Shown piece after piece: positions 4,317 through 56,834 of a DNA stretch of 64,000 nucleotides. The notes beneath the pieces were generated by a model, which saw only the letters and a program-made list of their open reading frames with translations, had not been told where the DNA came from and made no database searches. Position 1 is the first letter of the stretch, and each line of letters begins with the position of its first letter. Made by a program: the position numbers and the translations under genes. Origin of the DNA: Escherichia phage vB_EcoM-UFV10; the sequence record OP555981.1; one strand, 5' to 3'.

Positions 4317-4334
4317 AAAGGCCCGAAGGCCTTT
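4317..4334 (-). terminator. UUCG-tetraloop hairpin
   Basis: AAAGGCC-cgaa-GGCCTTT; loop is UUCG on the minus transcript; directly 3' of the lipoprotein gene. Confidence 0.6.
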
Positions 4335-11685: not shown

Positions 11686-12387
11686 TTATAGATTAAATCC
11701 TTCAAAATCAAGAGTATAGATAGTGTATGTTGAATACTTTTTATACTCATATCTATCTGCAATTCTAAATACACTTCCAGCTGGTATCATTACTTCTTGT
11801 TCATCTGAAACTAATTCCATATTACGATAACGATGGCTATCCGGAAACTTAAAGTTTGGATTGTATTCTTTACAGCGTAGAGCTTTTATAGCTTCTTGTT
11901 CATCTGAAACTAATTCCATATTACGATAACGATGGCTATCCGGAAACTTAAAGTTTGGATTGTATTCTTTACAGCGTAGAGCTTTTATAGCATACTCCTG
12001 GAAATTGAATACCATAGGAGCTTTGAATTCAAAAATAACCTGTGTGTTATACTCTAAACCAGAAGCAAAATGTAGAGCTATATTTTTATCATATGAAGCT
12101 GATACGACTTTATCAAATGTAATAATATCAATTCCTTGATTTAACACCTGCTTAGTCTCAGCTGGAACACCTCTCCAAAGAGGTTTATCGTTTGGAACCA
12201 AACGAGATTTGATTATTTCATTTAACCAAGTATGGTCATCTGGTTTGTTGGTAATACAATGAATTAAAAGTTCAATTTCAGATAAATTAAACCCTTCAGA
12301 AAGTAATTCTTCACGAATAGAAGCACGCACCGATGCATCCATTGATTTTATTTTAAAATCTTTTAGTTGCATTACTGAGTATTTCAT
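11686..12387 (-). CDS. modA: ADP-ribosyltransferase ModA-like carrying an internal 33-aa tandem duplication
   Basis: 233 aa (T4 ModA is 200 aa; 200+33); ART motifs R (LWRG), S-x-S (SAS), E-x-E (EQE); duplicated block AIKALRCKEYNPNFKFPDSHRYRNMELVSDEQE. Confidence 0.7.
   Translation of the reverse strand: MKYSVMQLKDFKIKSMDASVRASIREELLSEGFNLSEIELLIHCITNKPDDHTWLNEIIKSRLVPNDKPLWRGVPAETKQVLNQGIDIITFDKVVSASYDKNIALHFASGLEYNTQVIFEFKAPMVFNFQEYAIKALRCKEYNPNFKFPDSHRYRNMELVSDEQEAIKALRCKEYNPNFKFPDSHRYRNMELVSDEQEVMIPAGSVFRIADRYEYKKYSTYTIYTLDFEGFNL
11793..11990. repeat. perfect 99-bp tandem direct duplication (2 copies) inside modA
   Basis: 11793-11891 and 11892-11990 identical base for base; in frame. Confidence 0.9.
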
Positions 12388-14561: not shown

Positions 14562-14903
14562 TCAATCGCAAGATGTAGATGAACAACTAGAATCACAAGA
14601 ACTTCCACATGAATCGCCCGTCCATACATGAACAGGAACATTAGTATCATATGAATCAGAACTAGACTGTGTATTCTGTGCATTAGATGATGTAGTAGGT
14701 GTTGACCAGCGCCAAGGATTTTTATAATATTCTTGGGCTTCTTCATAAGTCATAGTAACTGCTTCTACTGTTCCATCTCCCATATAAACATATTCAACTA
14801 CAGTTAAAGGAAGATAGTCATTTGAAATAGGAACTACACCTTCTCCGGGAGTTGTAGAGAAAAAATCTGTAAAGAAATTTTTAAACCAATTAAAGATAAA
14901 CAT
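14562..14903 (-). CDS. hypothetical protein with Cys/Ser-rich C-terminal tail
   Basis: 113-aa ORF ending [18 protein letters not shown]; ATG start. Confidence 0.45.
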
Positions 14904-15109
14904 TACAAAAAGCCTCTTTTGAATTCGACTTGTTTATCGCCATAATCATATCGAATCTCTGCGTTAAATTCAACAGAACCATCTGCGTACATCATAAATG
15001 AATGCACAACAACTTCTGTAGACCATGGTTGCAATTCATATTTCTTCATTACATGCCGTGAAATGATAATATCTAAATCTTCATTTGGTTTAATCCAACG
15101 ATTTAACAT
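14903..15109 (-). CDS. hypothetical protein
   Basis: 68-aa ORF downstream of an early promoter. Confidence 0.45.
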   Translation of the reverse strand: MLNRWIKPNEDLDIIISRHVMKKYELQPWSTEVVVHSFMMYADGSVEFNAEIRYDYGDKQVEFKRGFL

Positions 15110-15135: not shown

Positions 15136-15165
15136 ATTATACCATACTCATTTTGGAAAGTAAAC
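15136..15165 (-). promoter_or_regulatory. early promoter downstream of the soc terminator
   Basis: minus strand GTTTAC-spacer-TATAAT with extended TGG; approximate. Confidence 0.5.
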
Positions 15166-15180
15166 CGGTAAAATGAAAAA

Positions 15181-15200
15181 AGGACTCCCGAAGGAGTCCT
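15181..15200 (-). terminator. UUCG-tetraloop hairpin after soc
   Basis: AGGACTCC-cgaa-GGAGTCCT, 8-bp stem, followed on minus strand by a T-run. Confidence 0.65.
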
Positions 15201-15207
15201 TGAATTA

Positions 15208-15444
15208 TTAACCACCTATTTCTGTGGGTGTAAACATTGCAGCATTCTTAGTTTTCCAGTCAGCTGCATCAGAAACTACAGTAGAATATGCCGCCTTTTC
15301 AGAAGGAAAGGTCTGATAATGAGAATCTGCAATACGATGCTCGTTAGAATAAATTTCAAACGGAACAGAAACTTCCATACCTTTAACTTCTTTGCCTTCA
15401 CCTGTTGGATGAGTAAAGGTCTTGATGTTAACGAAACCACCCAT
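15208..15444 (-). CDS. soc: small outer capsid protein
   Basis: 78 aa; VNIKTF...HYQTFPSEKAAYSTV matches T4 Soc; TATAAATA late promoter upstream, UUCG hairpin downstream. Confidence 0.85.
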   Translation of the reverse strand: MGGFVNIKTFTHPTGEGKEVKGMEVSVPFEIYSNEHRIADSHYQTFPSEKAAYSTVVSDAADWKTKNAAMFTPTEIGG

Positions 15445-20892: not shown

Positions 20893-21237
20893 TTAAAAGA
20901 ATTTAAATTTTTTCTTTGACCTTTTATTAAATGCATCTTGTAGTTGCATTGTAATACATTTTTCTACATGAGGAGCTAACTCAGCTTTTCTTTCTTGGTC
21001 AAGAACAGCAAAGTCCATTACGACTTTTCCATCAACCCAATCTAATTTTGTCACATACACAATGTGTGTAGAACCGTCTTCTAGTTTAATGACAATCTCC
21101 TGGATAACATTTTCCATGGCAGATTTAATTATCTTAAGAGATTCATTAAAAAGACGTTCTTTTCTTTCTTCTTCCCCCTCCGAAGAGGGGGATTCATCGA
21201 TAATTTTTAGATCTAAATCTAAATCATCTTTATTCAT
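20893..21237 (-). CDS. 40: gene 40-position protein (head vertex assembly chaperone in T4)
   Basis: 114 aa from internal ATG; between 41 and uvsX as in T4; acidic N-terminus. Confidence 0.5.
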   Translation of the reverse strand: MNKDDLDLDLKIIDESPSSEGEEERKERLFNESLKIIKSAMENVIQEIVIKLEDGSTHIVYVTKLDWVDGKVVMDFAVLDQERKAELAPHVEKCITMQLQDAFNKRSKKKFKFF

Positions 21238-24871: not shown

Positions 24872-25108
24872 TCAAATACAAGTAGTAATTACTCCAGTAG
24901 TGCTTACACAGGTATTACCTAATTGAACACCCAACGTTCCATTAGTATTCATATGAAGATTATCATCAATTTTTGTTGATACTTTACCATTCATGTGAAT
25001 AATAGTATTAGATTCAATCACATTCTGAGTGTCATTTTCAATATCAATAAATGGAACAGTTGCTAATGCAACTAAACACACTGCTAAACAACCATAAACA
25101 ATTTTCAT
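24872..25108 (-). CDS. small secreted protein
   Basis: 78 aa from ATG MKIVYGCLAVCLVALA; track extension is translated promoter/leader. Confidence 0.5.
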   Translation of the reverse strand: MKIVYGCLAVCLVALATVPFIDIENDTQNVIESNTIIHMNGKVSTKIDDNLHMNTNGTLGVQLGNTCVSTTGVITTCI

Positions 25109-25143
25109 TTTATTCTCCAAATCCGTATCAGTTGATAGTTGTA

Positions 25144-25172
25144 TAGTACCATGGAAGAACGGGGATGTAAAT
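25144..25172 (-). promoter_or_regulatory. early promoter plus conserved leader (TTTACA / TACTAT / ...GGAGAATAAAATG)
   Basis: same promoter-leader module as at about 6100, 51350, 52800, 56380. Confidence 0.5.
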
Positions 25173-25260
25173 AGTTTTGTGAAAAAATTTTTAATGAATT
25201 TACAGGACCTAGAATCATCTATTTTTCCTAAGTATAGATTTATATTACTTGTATGAAAAA

Positions 25261-25276
25261 GGGACCCGGAGGTCCC
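25261..25276 (-). terminator. hairpin terminator after gene 43
   Basis: GGGACC-cgga-GGTCCC followed on minus strand by CTTTTTC. Confidence 0.6.
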
Positions 25277-25289
25277 TAGATTTATTCTA

Positions 25290-27986: not shown

Positions 27987-28046
27987 AGATATTCCTTAGT
28001 TTATAGCCCGAGTTATTAGGCTCTTGATATATTATACTCCAAATAA

Positions 28047-28060
28047 GGGGCCGAAGCCCC
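28047..28060 (-). terminator. UUCG-tetraloop hairpin
   Basis: GGGGC-cgaa-GCCCC immediately 3' of the small ORF and upstream of the gene 43 promoter. Confidence 0.5.
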
Positions 28061-28067
28061 TTTGCTT

Positions 28068-35505: not shown

Positions 35506-35665
35506 ATATCAAGAACCGTCATTGAAATGCAAAATAAAATTATTGAAATAAAACCATCTGGAGTACTAAAGAATCCAACCCAACACGCTCTAGTGAAAAG
35601 ATAAAACGCGAGAAAAAGTATCACATATCCAAGAAATATCATTATATCAAACTCCATATAAAGCT

Positions 35666-35683
35666 AAAGGGCCGAAGCCCTTT
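35666..35683 (-). terminator. UUCG-tetraloop hairpin after a-gt
   Basis: AAAGGGC-cgaa-GCCCTTT. Confidence 0.55.
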
Positions 35684-36884
35684 ATTTTGTAATAATGTCA
35701 AACTGCTCTTTAAAGCAGAAGCTTGAATCTTGGTGCTGATACAAAAATTCATAAGCTTTTTCGCGTTCACGGTCATAAAGAGTTCGGTCAGATGACAGTT
35801 CTTTAATACGTTCAAATGTTGATTCCATGTCATTTTCATCAAACCAAATGATACCGCTATCATGCGAGGTCAAAGGAGTATTATCAACACGGAATTTTAA
35901 ATTTTCGCCTGTAGATTTCCAAAATACCGGAATTGTTCCACATGCACCAAGCTCGAGATGAGTATATTCTAAAGAACGTTGTAGATATTTTTTGTCCAAC
36001 TTACTCAGCTGATAACCAAATCCGGATTTACTCATGCGTTCAAGCATTTCGCTATTTACATAACGGTCAAGAATTTGCGTTGGCAAATTAGGAGCAATTT
36101 TAATTTGGTCTACTTGATGAAGACGATAATACTCGTATGGAATTCCTTTTTCTTTAATAGGAATGAACGCTGGAGAACGTTCCAGACCTTCCATAATAGT
36201 ACTTAGTCCTGCAGGTTTAAGATGTTTTTCATGAAAATCAAACATCTGATAAAAACCTTTCCACGTAGTAGTACGACCAATCCAACGATTGATATTCATG
36301 TTAATTTCAGAAACATCTTTCCAGTAGGTTGATCGAACCTTTGCAATATCCATCGGAGGCTGAAAGTTATATACTGTCGGTGCTTCTTCAATATCATCAA
36401 ACAGAGAAACTGTTTCAGGATACCATTCTTTCATCAGAACTTTATTAAAATCGCCATTATCAGAATGGCTAAAAATAACATCAGCTCGACGAACAGTTTC
36501 TTCTAATCCCAAATTTCGACGCAAAGAAAGAGAAGAATGGTCATGTTGATAAACTACAACACGAACAGAAGGTTTAATGTTATCAATAATTTTTTTATAG
36601 TTATTAATAGTGTCTTCTTCAACTGAAGTAGCAGGAACTGAATTGATAATTAGAATATCACAATCATTTACCAGCTTAAGTGTTTTATCGTATTCTTTTG
36701 CCAATAAAACCGGAATTGAAAATGATTTATAATCATGCGCGCAATTACGAGTAAATGATTTATCTTTAGCATAAACCAAAGTTACTTCATGACCATTTTT
36801 AATAAACCAATCACGTTGCTCAAGAGAAAATTTAGTTACACCACAACCTTCAAGACCTCGAGCCATAAAAATACATACTTTCAT
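35682..36884 (-). CDS. a-gt: DNA alpha-glucosyltransferase
   Basis: 400 aa as T4 AGT; N-terminus M-VCIFMARGLEGCGVTKF close to remembered T4 AGT; MotA-box promoter upstream. Confidence 0.8.
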   Translation of the reverse strand: MKVCIFMARGLEGCGVTKFSLEQRDWFIKNGHEVTLVYAKDKSFTRNCAHDYKSFSIPVLLAKEYDKTLKLVNDCDILIINSVPATSVEEDTINNYKKIIDNIKPSVRVVVYQHDHSSLSLRRNLGLEETVRRADVIFSHSDNGDFNKVLMKEWYPETVSLFDDIEEAPTVYNFQPPMDIAKVRSTYWKDVSEINMNINRWIGRTTTWKGFYQMFDFHEKHLKPAGLSTIMEGLERSPAFIPIKEKGIPYEYYRLHQVDQIKIAPNLPTQILDRYVNSEMLERMSKSGFGYQLSKLDKKYLQRSLEYTHLELGACGTIPVFWKSTGENLKFRVDNTPLTSHDSGIIWFDENDMESTFERIKELSSDRTLYDREREKAYEFLYQHQDSSFCFKEQFDIITK

Positions 36885-36934: not shown

Positions 36935-36954
36935 ATAGGAGCCGAAGCTCCTAT
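36935..36954 (-). terminator. UUCG-tetraloop hairpin
   Basis: ATAGGAGC-cgaa-GCTCCTAT. Confidence 0.5.
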
Positions 36955-39303: not shown

Positions 39304-39319
39304 AAGGGCCGAAGCCCTT
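39304..39319 (-). terminator. UUCG-tetraloop hairpin
   Basis: AAGGGC-cgaa-GCCCTT. Confidence 0.5.
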
Positions 39320-51789: not shown

Positions 51790-52758
51790 TTATTTCAGAA
51801 GAGTAACCTCAGCGATTTCTTCCCAACCGTTTTTGTCGGTCATAATAAAGTCAGCAAGATAAAGAGCAGTACGCAGTGAAACATTGCGTAAACGATTAAC
51901 ATTGACTTTCATCCATGATAATGCTTTATAAGTTTCTTCATCAGAAAGACCGCGCTTTTGCATCATGTCAGTTGAAAGAATAACATCTTCAACCCTGACC
52001 ATAATTTCTTCATTAGTGTGAACACCCAAATCCAAATAAACTGAGCGGGACACTAATGCTTGTAAATGTGGAGCAAGTTTAGTACCACGGTCTAATTCGC
52101 GGTCAATGTCAACGTTTGTGATAAAAACAATCGTTCCTTTAAATTCAAACTCACGCTCAATGCCTTTTTCTTCTAAGTAAGAAGATGCAGTGCTCCAGCA
52201 GACTTTACGGGTCTCTCCAGTGTCCAGAGCAGCTTTCAGAAGATTAAGAATGTCCATATCAGAGAAAACATCCACATCATCAATCAAAAGGACAGAATTC
52301 TCTTCACGATTATTCCAAAGCTGCTCATAAAGACCAATACCAGAGATTTTACCATTAATGCTTTTATATTCAATGTATCCAATATCATTTGCTTTATTTA
52401 AAGCTTTATCTAAAGAATACGTTTTACCAATACCCGCCGCACCAGAGATAATTAATGAACGAATGTTTCCGTTAATAATACCATTCGTCATCATTCCCAT
52501 AACATTAAATCTTTTATTAATGCGGGTTTTCATATCTTCATATGATTCTTTAACTTCTTCAACTTTTACACCATCATATGAAATGTCTGATTTGTAAACC
52601 CAAACACCGCGACGTTTACCGTCAATTTCAACAAAAACTTTACCATCTCCTTGTGCATCTACTGGGGCATTATCAGGGAACCACTCACCTAAGAGTTCAA
52701 AAGTTCCAGAGATTTCTTTGCCAAAGTAGATACCCTTATTGATAGTTACAGTTTTCAT
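51790..52758 (-). CDS. P-loop/AAA+-like ATPase
   Basis: 322 aa from ATG MKTVTINKG; Walker A GAAGIGKT, Walker B VLLIDDVD, sensor-like FITN; early promoter and conserved leader upstream. Confidence 0.55.
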   Translation of the reverse strand: MKTVTINKGIYFGKEISGTFELLGEWFPDNAPVDAQGDGKVFVEIDGKRRGVWVYKSDISYDGVKVEEVKESYEDMKTRINKRFNVMGMMTNGIINGNIRSLIISGAAGIGKTYSLDKALNKANDIGYIEYKSINGKISGIGLYEQLWNNREENSVLLIDDVDVFSDMDILNLLKAALDTGETRKVCWSTASSYLEEKGIEREFEFKGTIVFITNVDIDRELDRGTKLAPHLQALVSRSVYLDLGVHTNEEIMVRVEDVILSTDMMQKRGLSDEETYKALSWMKVNVNRLRNVSLRTALYLADFIMTDKNGWEEIAEVTLLK

Positions 52759-52792
52759 TTTATTCTCCAAATCCGTATCAGTTGATAGTTGT

Positions 52793-52822
52793 ATAGTACC
52801 ATAAAGCTTTATGCTTGTAAAC
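52793..52822 (-). promoter_or_regulatory. early promoter for the ATPase gene
   Basis: minus strand GTTTAC-18bp-TACTAT then leader ...GGAGAATAAAATG; follows the hairpin at 52854-52871. Confidence 0.5.
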
Positions 52823-52853
52823 TGTTTTGTGAAAAAATTTTTGAAATAAAAAA

Positions 52854-52871
52854 GGGAGCCCGAAGGCTCCC
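52854..52871 (-). terminator. UUCG-tetraloop hairpin after the nucleotidyltransferase gene
   Basis: GGGAGCC-cgaa-GGCTCCC. Confidence 0.55.
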
Positions 52872-52873
52872 TA

Positions 52874-55960: not shown

Positions 55961-56164
55961 TTAAACTCTCGTATTGTGATCGATAATTTCATCAAGAAAC
56001 ATATCTAAAGCTTCCACAGCATTATCAACTTTAGCTTCAAGTTCATCAATACCTTTATTTGCAATGCCTGACGAAAACCAAGCAAAGTCGCTAAGTTCCT
56101 CATCTGCTTTACGAATTAAAGCTACCAATTCCTTAATTTTATCCGCTTGTTCGATACTAATCAT
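55961..56164 (-). CDS. hypothetical protein
   Basis: 67 aa from internal [12 protein letters not shown]. Confidence 0.4.
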   Translation of the reverse strand: MISIEQADKIKELVALIRKADEELSDFAWFSSGIANKGIDELEAKVDNAVEALDMFLDEIIDHNTRV

Positions 56165-56352
56165 TATTCCACCACATATGAAAGAGAGAATATTGCACAT
56201 GCCATGTGAGTTGCAACTTCATCACACATATTATAACGTTTCTTAAGAAGTTCTACAAGTTTTTCACTAGTAACTTCATCCATGTTGACGAAAAAATCAC
56301 CATTAATGATGACGTAGATATTTCCTTCTTGATTGAGTGCTTCAATTTTCAT
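56164..56352 (-). CDS. hypothetical protein
   Basis: 62 aa from [11 protein letters not shown] (track start is TTG inside the leader). Confidence 0.4.
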
Positions 56353-56380: not shown

Positions 56381-56410
56381 ATAGTATAACAGCTCAAACG
56401 GAAAGTAAAC
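56381..56410 (-). promoter_or_regulatory. early promoter
   Basis: minus strand GTTTAC-18bp-TACTAT; part of a terminator-promoter cassette also seen at about 15150-15200. Confidence 0.5.
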
Positions 56411-56425
56411 CGGTAAAATGAAAAA

Positions 56426-56443
56426 AGTCTCCCGAAGGAGACT
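56426..56443 (-). terminator. UUCG-tetraloop hairpin
   Basis: AGTCTCC-cgaa-GGAGACT; flank identical to the soc terminator cassette, stem differs by compensatory changes. Confidence 0.55.
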
Positions 56444-56447
56444 AATG

Positions 56448-56834
56448 TTATTCGAGGGAAAGAAGATACTTACTCTGGTAAAACATCCCAGTAATATCAT
56501 CTATCGTGCTTTGGATGGCTGGAGGCATTTCTTTATAAATGCTGTTAGATTGGTCTAGTATGCGATCAATCATTTTAATTGTGTCGGTAGGAAGTTTACT
56601 GGCATCTGGAATTGAAGGCGTGTATTTTCTACCAGAATACCCCAAATATTGCTCACCAAATTTATCAATCAAATCTGGCAACTCGGAAAAAATAAAATCG
56701 TATGCTTTGTGTCTAGCATAACTTTTAGTTTCAAAATGTGCAGAATGAAAATAAGCTTGTGCAGCCATTAATAAACCTAAGTATTCATCTGCCTTTGAAG
56801 GTTTTCCACTTTGTGAAAAGTCGCTGAATTTCAT
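56448..56834 (-). CDS. hypothetical protein (rI.-1 position)
   Basis: 128-aa ORF upstream-adjacent to rI; hairpin downstream. Confidence 0.45.

Follow-up and report, generated by a model that had tools for sequence, protein, structure and literature searches.

Two intergenic sites of this phage genome, 41 kb apart, carry the same block of 28 nucleotides beside hairpins whose stems differ, and the question is what such a repeated element does and how the identity between its two copies should be read. The window, i.e. the whole stretch of 64,000 nucleotides that was analysed, comes from Escherichia phage vB_EcoM-UFV10 (OP555981.1). In a sequence search the 3-kb and 2.5-kb pieces around sites 1 and 2 showed 100% identity to Escherichia phage vB_EcoM-UFV09 and 94-98% identity to hundreds of Tequatrovirus (T4-like) genomes, and on these matches the window is that of a Tequatrovirus, a T4-like coliphage. 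The genes in this part of the genome are carried by the minus strand. Annotation transferred from wV7 and T4 places site 1 at the junction between soc, the upstream gene, and mrh.2, while transfer from relatives including SA21RB and T4 places site 2 at the junction between rI.-1 (mobD.6) and mobD.5:

15208..15444, minus strand: soc (small outer capsid protein) open reading frame (ORF scan; wV7 and T4 annotation of the orthologous region)
14903..15109, minus strand: mrh.2 open reading frame, 68 aa, with a GAGGAG Shine-Dalgarno sequence ahead of it; the gene served by the site-1 promoter (ORF scan, annotation, sequence)
56448..56834, minus strand: rI.-1 (mobD.6) open reading frame (ORF scan; annotation transfer)
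56164..56352, minus strand: mobD.5-like open reading frame, ATG at 56350-56352, with a GAGGAG Shine-Dalgarno sequence ahead of it; served by the site-2 promoter (ORF scan, annotation)

Both cassettes are placed between a stop codon and the next ATG, and the hairpin follows the stop codon of soc by 6 nt and that of rI.-1 by 4 nt. The order of elements on the minus strand is the same at both sites, i.e. stop codon, hairpin, a run of six U residues, CATTTTACCG, the -35 element (G)TTTACT, a 17-nt spacer, the -10 element, a GAGGAG leader and the ATG. The region upstream of the promoter is A/T-rich in both cassettes and includes a T6-CATTTTA block, and the distance from the end of the stem to the -35 element is 15 nt at site 1 and 16 nt at site 2. 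The individual parts are as follows:

15180..15201, minus strand: site-1 hairpin AAGGACUCC-UUCG-GGAGUCCUU, 9 bp (5 G-C), C(UUCG)G loop at 15189-15192 (sequence, hairpin scan)
15176..15181, minus strand: U6 run of the putative site-1 terminator (T6 on the minus strand), partly within the stem (sequence)
15136..15165, minus strand: predicted site-1 early promoter for mrh.2, -35 (G)TTTACT at 15159-15165, 17-nt spacer with TG, -10 TATAAT at 15136-15141 (promoter scan)
56426..56443, minus strand: site-2 hairpin AGUCUCC-UUCG-GGAGACU, 7 bp (4 G-C), loop at 56433-56436 (sequence, hairpin scan)
56421-56426, minus strand: site-2 U-run, partly inside the stem
56381..56410, minus strand: site-2 early promoter ('early promoter 57.9' in T4), -35 (G)TTTACT at 56404-56410, N17, -10 TACTAT at 56381-56386 (pattern scan, T4 annotation)

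On the sense strand the UUCG loop is closed by a C-G pair at both sites (CC-UUCG-GG). The site-1 hairpin has a dG of -14.5 kcal/mol, and its fold in a 66-nt context has a minimum free energy of -19.5 kcal/mol with a z-score of -3.2. The corresponding values for site 2 are -10.3 for the hairpin and -11.2 kcal/mol in context, where the z-score of -1.15 is only a modest gain over shuffled sequence. For both sites, the centroid structure in the 66-nt context is the hairpin. The stems are G+C-rich and at least 5 bp long, the loops are short and a U-run lies 3' of each stem, as the sequence criteria for intrinsic terminators require, and a pattern scan returned both hairpins as terminator-like on the minus strand. 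On the plus strand, no T-run follows the hairpin at site 1 or site 2. The elements by which T4 early promoters are recognised, (G)TTTAC, a spacing of about 17 nt and a TAnnnT -10, are likewise present at both sites. One difference is found in the site-2 promoter, where the extended -10 TG is gone (GTTATACTAT here as opposed to GTGGTACTAT in T4). A simple sigma-70 scan called the site-1 promoter, and the site-2 promoter stayed under the threshold; the latter may be weaker here than in T4.

Some of these elements are annotated in public records. The T4 GenBank record U76612.1 has site 2 as a 'terminator' plus the -35 and -10 of 'early promoter 57.9', the same terminator and a T4-type early promoter are annotated at site 2 in OL960580.1, and 'terminator' features lie under site 1 in MK327937.1 and KJ668714.2. 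A gathering scan of the whole window against Rfam matched no family, and our search for T4 transcriptome or 3'-end mapping literature gave no usable paper. The initial annotation had read the sites as terminators followed by early promoters. The former reading is supported by the position of the hairpins 4-6 nt past the stop codon, by the U-run, by the terminator-like scan calls and by the public 'terminator' annotation; the latter is supported by public annotation at site 2 and by the scan at site 1.

Cassettes of this build are known as PeSLs (promoter-early stem-loops). They were defined in RB49 and phi1, where promoter and terminator activity was tested in reporters (Arbiol et al. 2010, PMC2839356). 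Later work added the T4/PST pair, whose promoters have the consensus TTTACW-N17-TAYWAT and whose stems vary (Comeau et al. 2014, PMC4122927). We consider it very probable that each of our sites is such a two-function cassette, terminator plus early promoter, acting on the minus strand. The transcript of the upstream gene (soc or rI.-1) would fold past its stop codon into a G+C-rich hairpin with a C(UUCG)G cap and, together with the U-run, this would form an intrinsic (Rho-independent) terminator. The same hairpin may keep exonucleases away from the 3' end once the transcript is complete. A strong sigma-70 early promoter, with its -35 element 15-16 nt past the stem, would then restart transcription for mrh.2 or mobD.5. 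Cassettes of this type would insulate small gene modules transcriptionally, and they may also supply short homologies for recombination.

The two functions may even use the same nucleotides. Counted from the -10 element, the T6 run of site 1 is found at about -52 to -47 relative to the next promoter. In strong E. coli promoters, the T-tract of the distal UP subsite is at about -52 to -47. The T-run of the terminator probably also serves as this distal T-tract, and the T-run and C(A/G)TTTTA, at about -52 to -37, probably double as the UP element of the promoter. Such a role would explain the family-wide conservation of both the sequence and the spacing between stem and -35 element. T4 early promoters have been described as UP/-35/TGn/-10 'uber' promoters (Hinton 2010, PMC2988021).

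The UUCG loop is found in other parts of the window as well. Ten UUCG hairpins with stems of at least 6 bp are located on the minus strand, whereas 200 dinucleotide shuffles gave 0.68 on average and at most 4; one is located on the plus strand. The initial annotation had counted at least nine further hairpins with this loop, which is too many: there are eight with a perfect stem of at least 6 bp, plus one hairpin with a UCCG loop at 25260:

4317..4334, minus strand: UUCG hairpin where an 89-aa ORF stops; a MotA-box-like GCTTTA and a TATAAT come next (by homology, the middle promoter P39; T4 middle-promoter table, PMC2988021)
21173..21192, minus strand: UUCG hairpin UCCCCCUC-UUCG-GAGGGGGA, 37 nt past the uvsX stop, within the coding sequence of gene 40, without a U-run (hairpin and ORF scans)
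25260..25277, minus strand: UNCG-class hairpin AGGGACC-UCCG-GGUCCCU with a U-run, 12 nt past the gene 43 stop (scans)
28045..28062, minus strand: UUCG hairpin 5 nt past a stop codon, directly upstream of the gene 43 promoter/operator region (P43; PMC2988021)
30240..30261, minus strand: UUCG hairpin where gene 45 stops, ahead of gene 44 in the space between the two; its G.U pair is A-U in other phages (hairpin and ORF scans, orthologues)
35665..35684, minus strand: UUCG hairpin where a-gt stops; the MotA box and the TATAAT of P47 come next (by homology; PMC2988021, scans)
36935..36954, minus strand: UUCG hairpin where a 56-aa ORF (a-gt.2) stops; next comes a TGCTTTA MotA box, which is upstream of a-gt (scans)
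39304..39319, minus strand: AAGGGC-UUCG-GCCCUU, a UUCG hairpin that has a U-run, where a 66-aa ORF of the 55.3/55.2 region stops (scans)
52853..52872, minus strand: third full cassette of hairpin and early promoter, AGGGAGCC-UUCG-GGCUCCCU with a U-run, 1 nt past the nrdC.11 stop, GTTTACA 31 nt downstream (hairpin, ORF and promoter scans)

For nine out of the ten UUCG hairpins, the first nucleotide lies at -4 to +6 nt from a stop codon. An early promoter comes next after three of them (15180, 52853 and 56426) and a MotA-box-like GCTTTA with TATAAT after at least three (4317, 35665 and 36935); those with neither an early nor a MotA-like promoter next stand alone, if 28045, which lies by P43, is set aside. 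Viewed from the side of the promoters, TTTACW-N17-TAnnnT matches the minus strand of the window 23 times and the plus strand 3 times, and only three of the 23 have a strong hairpin within 70 nt upstream, in all three cases a UUCG hairpin.

A U-run is present only in the hairpins at 15180, 39304, 52853 and 56426. The loop motif alone therefore does not imply termination, as six out of ten UUCG hairpins lack the run. The loop marks stable 3' or intercistronic hairpins in general, with only a subset of them likely terminators. The missing U-runs also bear on a different explanation, namely that the hairpins are mainly stabilisers of mRNA 3' ends, processing barriers or folding nucleation sites, and that transcription mostly reads through them. 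Several hairpins placed directly before middle promoters or between co-transcribed genes (e.g. 45 and 44) agree with this idea, as does the thermodynamic stability of the UUCG tetraloop of T4 mRNA, which is independent of context (PMC4371310). At sites 1 and 2, however, a U6 run directly follows the stem as in intrinsic terminators, T4 records annotate site 2 as a terminator, and the stem-loops of PeSLs terminated transcription in the reporter constructs (PMC2839356); we regard read-through with a mainly stabilising role as unlikely. Terminator and stabiliser roles are not mutually exclusive.

The stems of the two sites vary in a manner that points to selection on structure. Counted from the loop, pair 5 is A-U at site 1 and U-A at site 2, and pair 7 is G-C and A-U, respectively, so that both pairs are changed on both sides and pairing is kept. 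This is what the initial annotation had described as paired substitutions, and it had taken them as evidence of selection for RNA structure. Two copies alone are thin evidence for such a claim, but it is upheld by the orthologues of site 1 and by a set of 17 distinct stem-loops. In Tequatrovirus, Dhakavirus and Mosigvirus the site-1 hairpin is kept and its stems differ:

Stem AAGGACUCC/GGAGUCCUU: window, T4, wV7, HEMP5 and BCH953P4
Stem AAGGAAUCC/GGAUUCCUU, a C-G to A-U swap: ES12, RB32, Dhakavirus VR5 and Mosigvirus phi25-307
Stem AAGGAACC/GGUUCCUU, a paired deletion of one base pair: WG01 and JS10
Stem with G.U pairs: T2 and one IMG/VR contig

The loop of these orthologues is UUCG, except for UCCG in RB32 and CUAG in wV7. 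The site-2 stem is unchanged across 12 sequences. The orthologues of the other UUCG hairpins give little covariation because they are near-invariant in six Tequatrovirus genomes; it was the orthologues of site 1 from other genera, together with cassettes from other loci, that supplied useful variation.

The 17 distinct 18-nt stem-loops from cassettes of T4-type phages have 98.3% of their cells paired, and six of the seven pairs are changed on both sides. The covariation score is 1.046 as compared with 0.241 in column shuffles, none of 500 shuffles reached this value, and registers slid along the alignment score at most 0.26. The closing C-G pair is invariant (17 out of 17), and there are seven G.U cells and zero A.C cells. 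This set combines orthologues with cassettes from other loci that possibly have no common ancestry, hence these numbers speak for structure as the conserved property and are not a tally of independent evolutionary events. The picture holds in a broader sample. When IMG/VR was scanned for exact matches to the promoter spacers of the two sites, only 4 and 3 loci came back. A degenerate pattern gave 34 loci; it fixed the loop, the G with which the 3' arm begins, the T-run, C(A/G)TTT and GTTTAC and set no condition on the 5' arm. Together with the loci gathered previously this makes 46 unique cassettes at more than 12 gene junctions, and in 45 out of the 46 the stem is 5-12 bp long, while its sequence differs greatly from one to another. 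With a random 5' arm, 7 out of 7 pairs form in only 0.1% of trials.

Does this selection act on RNA or on DNA? The palindromes could work as DNA, e.g. as a cruciform or as a protein-binding or recombination site for a recombinase, endonuclease VII or a homing enzyme. The hairpins do lie at mosaic boundaries, and three unrelated soc 3' ends meet the same hairpin and promoter in different phages. The authors of the PeSL study also speculated that a DNA-binding protein might target the stem (PMC2839356), and both strands of a perfect palindrome fold nearly equally well in silico. A palindrome, however, has no favoured loop orientation, and in the window the loop reads UUCG on the sense strand in ten out of ten hairpins. 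The CTTCGG hexamer itself is without strand bias (13 sense and 17 antisense copies), but strong stems flank 10 of the 13 sense copies and none of the 17 antisense copies. A study of T4 from 2020 reported the same tendency, with complementarity flanking CTTCGG in 'more than half' of the sense copies and in none of the antisense ones (PMC7165471). Moreover, the seven G.U cells of the stem-loop set can pair in the sense-strand RNA only, and A.C cells, which would be G.U on the other strand, are absent; the position after the stop codon and the U-run also suit an RNA function. Since the wobbles pair on the sense strand only and the loop orientation is fixed, the selected structure is that of an RNA and not of a DNA palindrome. 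We rejected the cruciform or protein-site reading on these two grounds, loop orientation and sense-strand-only G.U pairs, and consider it very improbable. Selection acts on the RNA structure and not on the stem sequence: the stems drift by compensatory change, whereas there is no such drift in the loop, its closing C-G pair, the U-run or the promoter. The cassettes thus illustrate selection on sense-strand RNA structure.

The 28-nt identity itself needs a separate discussion. The initial annotation was right that both quoted sequences are in the window and that they share an identical stretch, and its start for site 1 (15155) is exact. The start for site 2 is 56400 and not 56401, and the length is 28 nt and not 27: the exact block, GGAAAGTAAACCGGTAAAATGAAAAAAG, lies at 15155-15182 and 56400-56427. 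As had been claimed, it contains the -35 element of the next early promoter, (G)TTTACT, with N17 to TATAAT at site 1 and to TACTAT at site 2. GGAAAGTAAACCGGTAAAATGAAAAAAG matches nowhere else in the window, even when 3 mismatches are tolerated, and 100 dinucleotide shuffles contain no match. Near-identical long stretches between early-promoter regions are frequent in the window, e.g. 32 nt at 94% and 55 nt at 98%, therefore the identity is non-random yet unexceptional for this genome. Over 33 nt (GTTTAC itself with the 22 nt before it and the 5 nt behind it), site 2 is matched at 18-27 positions by unrelated cassettes and at 29 by site 1 of the window. Judged by these comparisons, the 28-nt identity, although far above what random sequence would give, is the top of a strong-consensus family and not clear evidence for recent duplication. 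This refines the initial interpretation of the cassettes, which is otherwise supported: much of the identity is family-wide promoter consensus.

We may still ask whether the two sites have exchanged short patches. At site 1, T4 reads CATTTAAATGG and the window reads CATTTTACCGG, i.e. there are three differences within 4 nt in a region that is otherwise 3.6% divergent between window and T4, and at each of the three the window's site 1 is the same as its site 2. The same haplotypes upstream of the promoter are in fact found at both sites in different phages, as counted among 50,697 phage records:

Site 1, TTTTACCGG (window state): about 142 records
Site 1, TTTAAATGG (T4 state): about 134 records
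Site 1, TTTAAACGG: about 40 records
Site 2, TTTTACCGG: about 431 records
Site 2, TTTAAACGG: RB32 and RB33 only

The 29-mer containing TTTAAACGG that RB32 and RB33 carry at site 2 is found at site 1 in 35 other phages, e.g. T6. As T4 recombination requires short homologies only, and PeSLs do recombine (PMC2839356), the 28-nt identity could have arisen by gene conversion of a non-allelic, short-patch kind, either between the cassettes, which are 41 kb apart, or between phages that infect the same cell, and not by old duplication or by convergence on a consensus. A number of observations go against this. The orthologue in Dhakavirus VR5, TTTTACTGG, is only one step away from the window state, so that the site-1 identity may be the ancestral state. 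At site 1 the variable positions occur in all four combinations, which fits recurrent mutation too. AAA in the proximal UP subsite results from the T-to-A and C-to-A changes, and parallel selection there could yield the haplotype twice. Finally, the family consensus already gives 18-27 identities out of 33 between unrelated cassettes. As an explanation of the 28-nt identity, conversion seems to us somewhat less probable than its alternatives taken together, and we do not claim it, since the outgroup polarity of the site-1 and site-2 haplotypes is ambiguous. The shared haplotypes are nevertheless a hint of exchange between the sites. The more general proposal, that sites 1 and 2 swap short patches by non-allelic conversion within a genome or between co-infecting phages, is more tentative still. 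If it is true, cassettes of the PeSL type would be homogenised in concert even where crossover is lethal, with essential genes in between, and the site-2 haplotype of RB32 and RB33, otherwise a site-1 haplotype only (e.g. in T6), would be the footprint of such an event. The sharing of haplotypes by distant cassettes is one small addition to the known picture, and it bears on the recombination model of PeSLs.

It remains to compare the cassettes with the known systems. Terminator plus early-promoter cassettes have been described before, in a group of phages that is very well studied, and their weight as a discovery is limited: the UUCG hairpins of T4 mRNA have been known since 1988, the PeSL architecture since 2010/2014, and site 2 is already annotated in the T4 record. 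With PeSLs our sites share the order of stem-loop terminator, A/T-rich region, sigma-70-type early promoter, Shine-Dalgarno sequence and start codon, and their promoters fit the T4/PST consensus given above. They are also placed between small non-essential genes at mosaic boundaries, in repeated copies with short common homologies. The surroundings are hyperplastic, with differences in gene content, as is typical of PeSLs. At site 1 the hairpin is abutted by the three unrelated soc 3' ends, and segF and other small ORFs upstream of soc differ in presence among phages; at site 2 the mobD region differs among T4, T2 and RB32. As far as can be read from sequence, each structural criterion of a PeSL that was tested is found at both sites. 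There are differences as well. The stems are not of the GGGG...CCCC type of RB49 and phi1, although those of T4/PST were already reported to be more variable (PMC4122927). Insertion or deletion between sites 1 and 2 was not seen, and loss of the intervening 41 kb of essential genes would be lethal.

The second system to be compared is that of the C(UUCG)G tetraloop hairpins of T4 mRNA, reportedly described by Tuerk et al. in PNAS in 1988. Here we see the same loop, the same C-G closing pair, the same intercistronic or 3' position and the same restriction of stems to the sense strand, and nothing substantive differs, the window being that of another Tequatrovirus. The link to the known T4 UUCG hairpins that the initial annotation had drawn is therefore correct (PMC4371310, PMC7165471). 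The overall architecture of the hairpins also bears similarities to intrinsic terminators of E. coli and its phages, inasmuch as a G+C-rich stem of 7-9 bp and a short loop are directly followed by a U-run; the difference is that the T-run, probably shared by terminator and promoter, is here common to the upstream region of the next promoter, and that the arrangement is unusually compact. Finally, the promoters resemble T4 early promoters in their GTTTAC -35 region, 17-nt spacing, TAnnAT -10 and conserved A/T-rich upstream region, with TG at site 1, whereas site 2 is without TGn in this phage and has TACTAT as its -10 element.

The stems of the UUCG hairpins (C(UUCG)G tetraloop stem-loops on the sense, minus strand) are also kept in relatives in which the loop itself has changed, as seen in three orthologues:

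wV7, orthologue of the site 1 hairpin (window 15180-15201, minus strand, between soc and mrh.2): loop CUAG, stem intact
RB32, orthologue of the same hairpin: loop UCCG, stem intact
HEMP5, orthologue of the hairpin at window 35665: loop UUUG, stem intact

Intact stems under these variant loops indicate that UUCG is strongly preferred without being obligatory. One member of the set lies within a coding sequence:

21173-21192, minus strand: UUCG hairpin UCCCCCUC-UUCG-GAGGGGGA, 37 nt beyond the uvsX stop and inside the coding sequence of gene 40

This hairpin is very stable (dG about -16 kcal/mol), is not followed by a U-run and is unchanged across six Tequatrovirus genomes; possible roles are to mark the 3' end of uvsX transcripts or to protect it.

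At site 1, alignment of the orthologues shows close relatives carrying any of three sequence types, unrelated to one another, at the 3' end of soc (window 15202-15260), whereas conservation is found throughout from the hairpin onward. The hairpin thus marks a recombination or mosaic boundary. The promoter of site 2 (between rI.-1 and mobD.5) differs between lineages as well: positions 56381-56395 read GTTATACTAT here, as opposed to GTGGTACTAT in T4 and GTGATACTAT in most relatives. The extended -10 TG is thus gone from the window genome, a loss that may have weakened the promoter in this lineage.

A further pair of near-identical segments, 25098-25152 and 52748-52802, belongs to two different genes and agrees at 98% of 55 nt (52 nt identical on alignment). 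The -10 element of the early promoter (TACTAT) falls within the shared stretch, as do the leader, Shine-Dalgarno sequence, ATG and initial codons, and the UP regions of the two promoters resemble each other too. Both copies lie downstream of a hairpin, which is the UCCG one at 25260 for the first copy and the UUCG one at 52853 for the second. The pair is a second, longer case of repeated promoter cassettes.

The product of modA, an RNA polymerase ADP-ribosyltransferase, has 200 aa in T4; at its position the window carries a minus-strand ORF of 233 aa (11686-12387) containing a perfect, in-frame 99-nt tandem duplication (11793-11990) that doubles 33 residues, AIKALRCKEYNPNFKFPDSHRYRNMELVSDEQE. 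This could be either a genuine lineage-specific duplication or an assembly artefact. In the T4 reference (NC_000866), two UUCG hairpins, orthologous to those at window positions 39304 and 30240, are each one C short in the 3' arm, whereas the corresponding stems are perfect in all five other Tequatrovirus genomes compared; the missing residues are more plausibly old sequencing errors, caused by gel compression in G+C-rich hairpins, than true differences.
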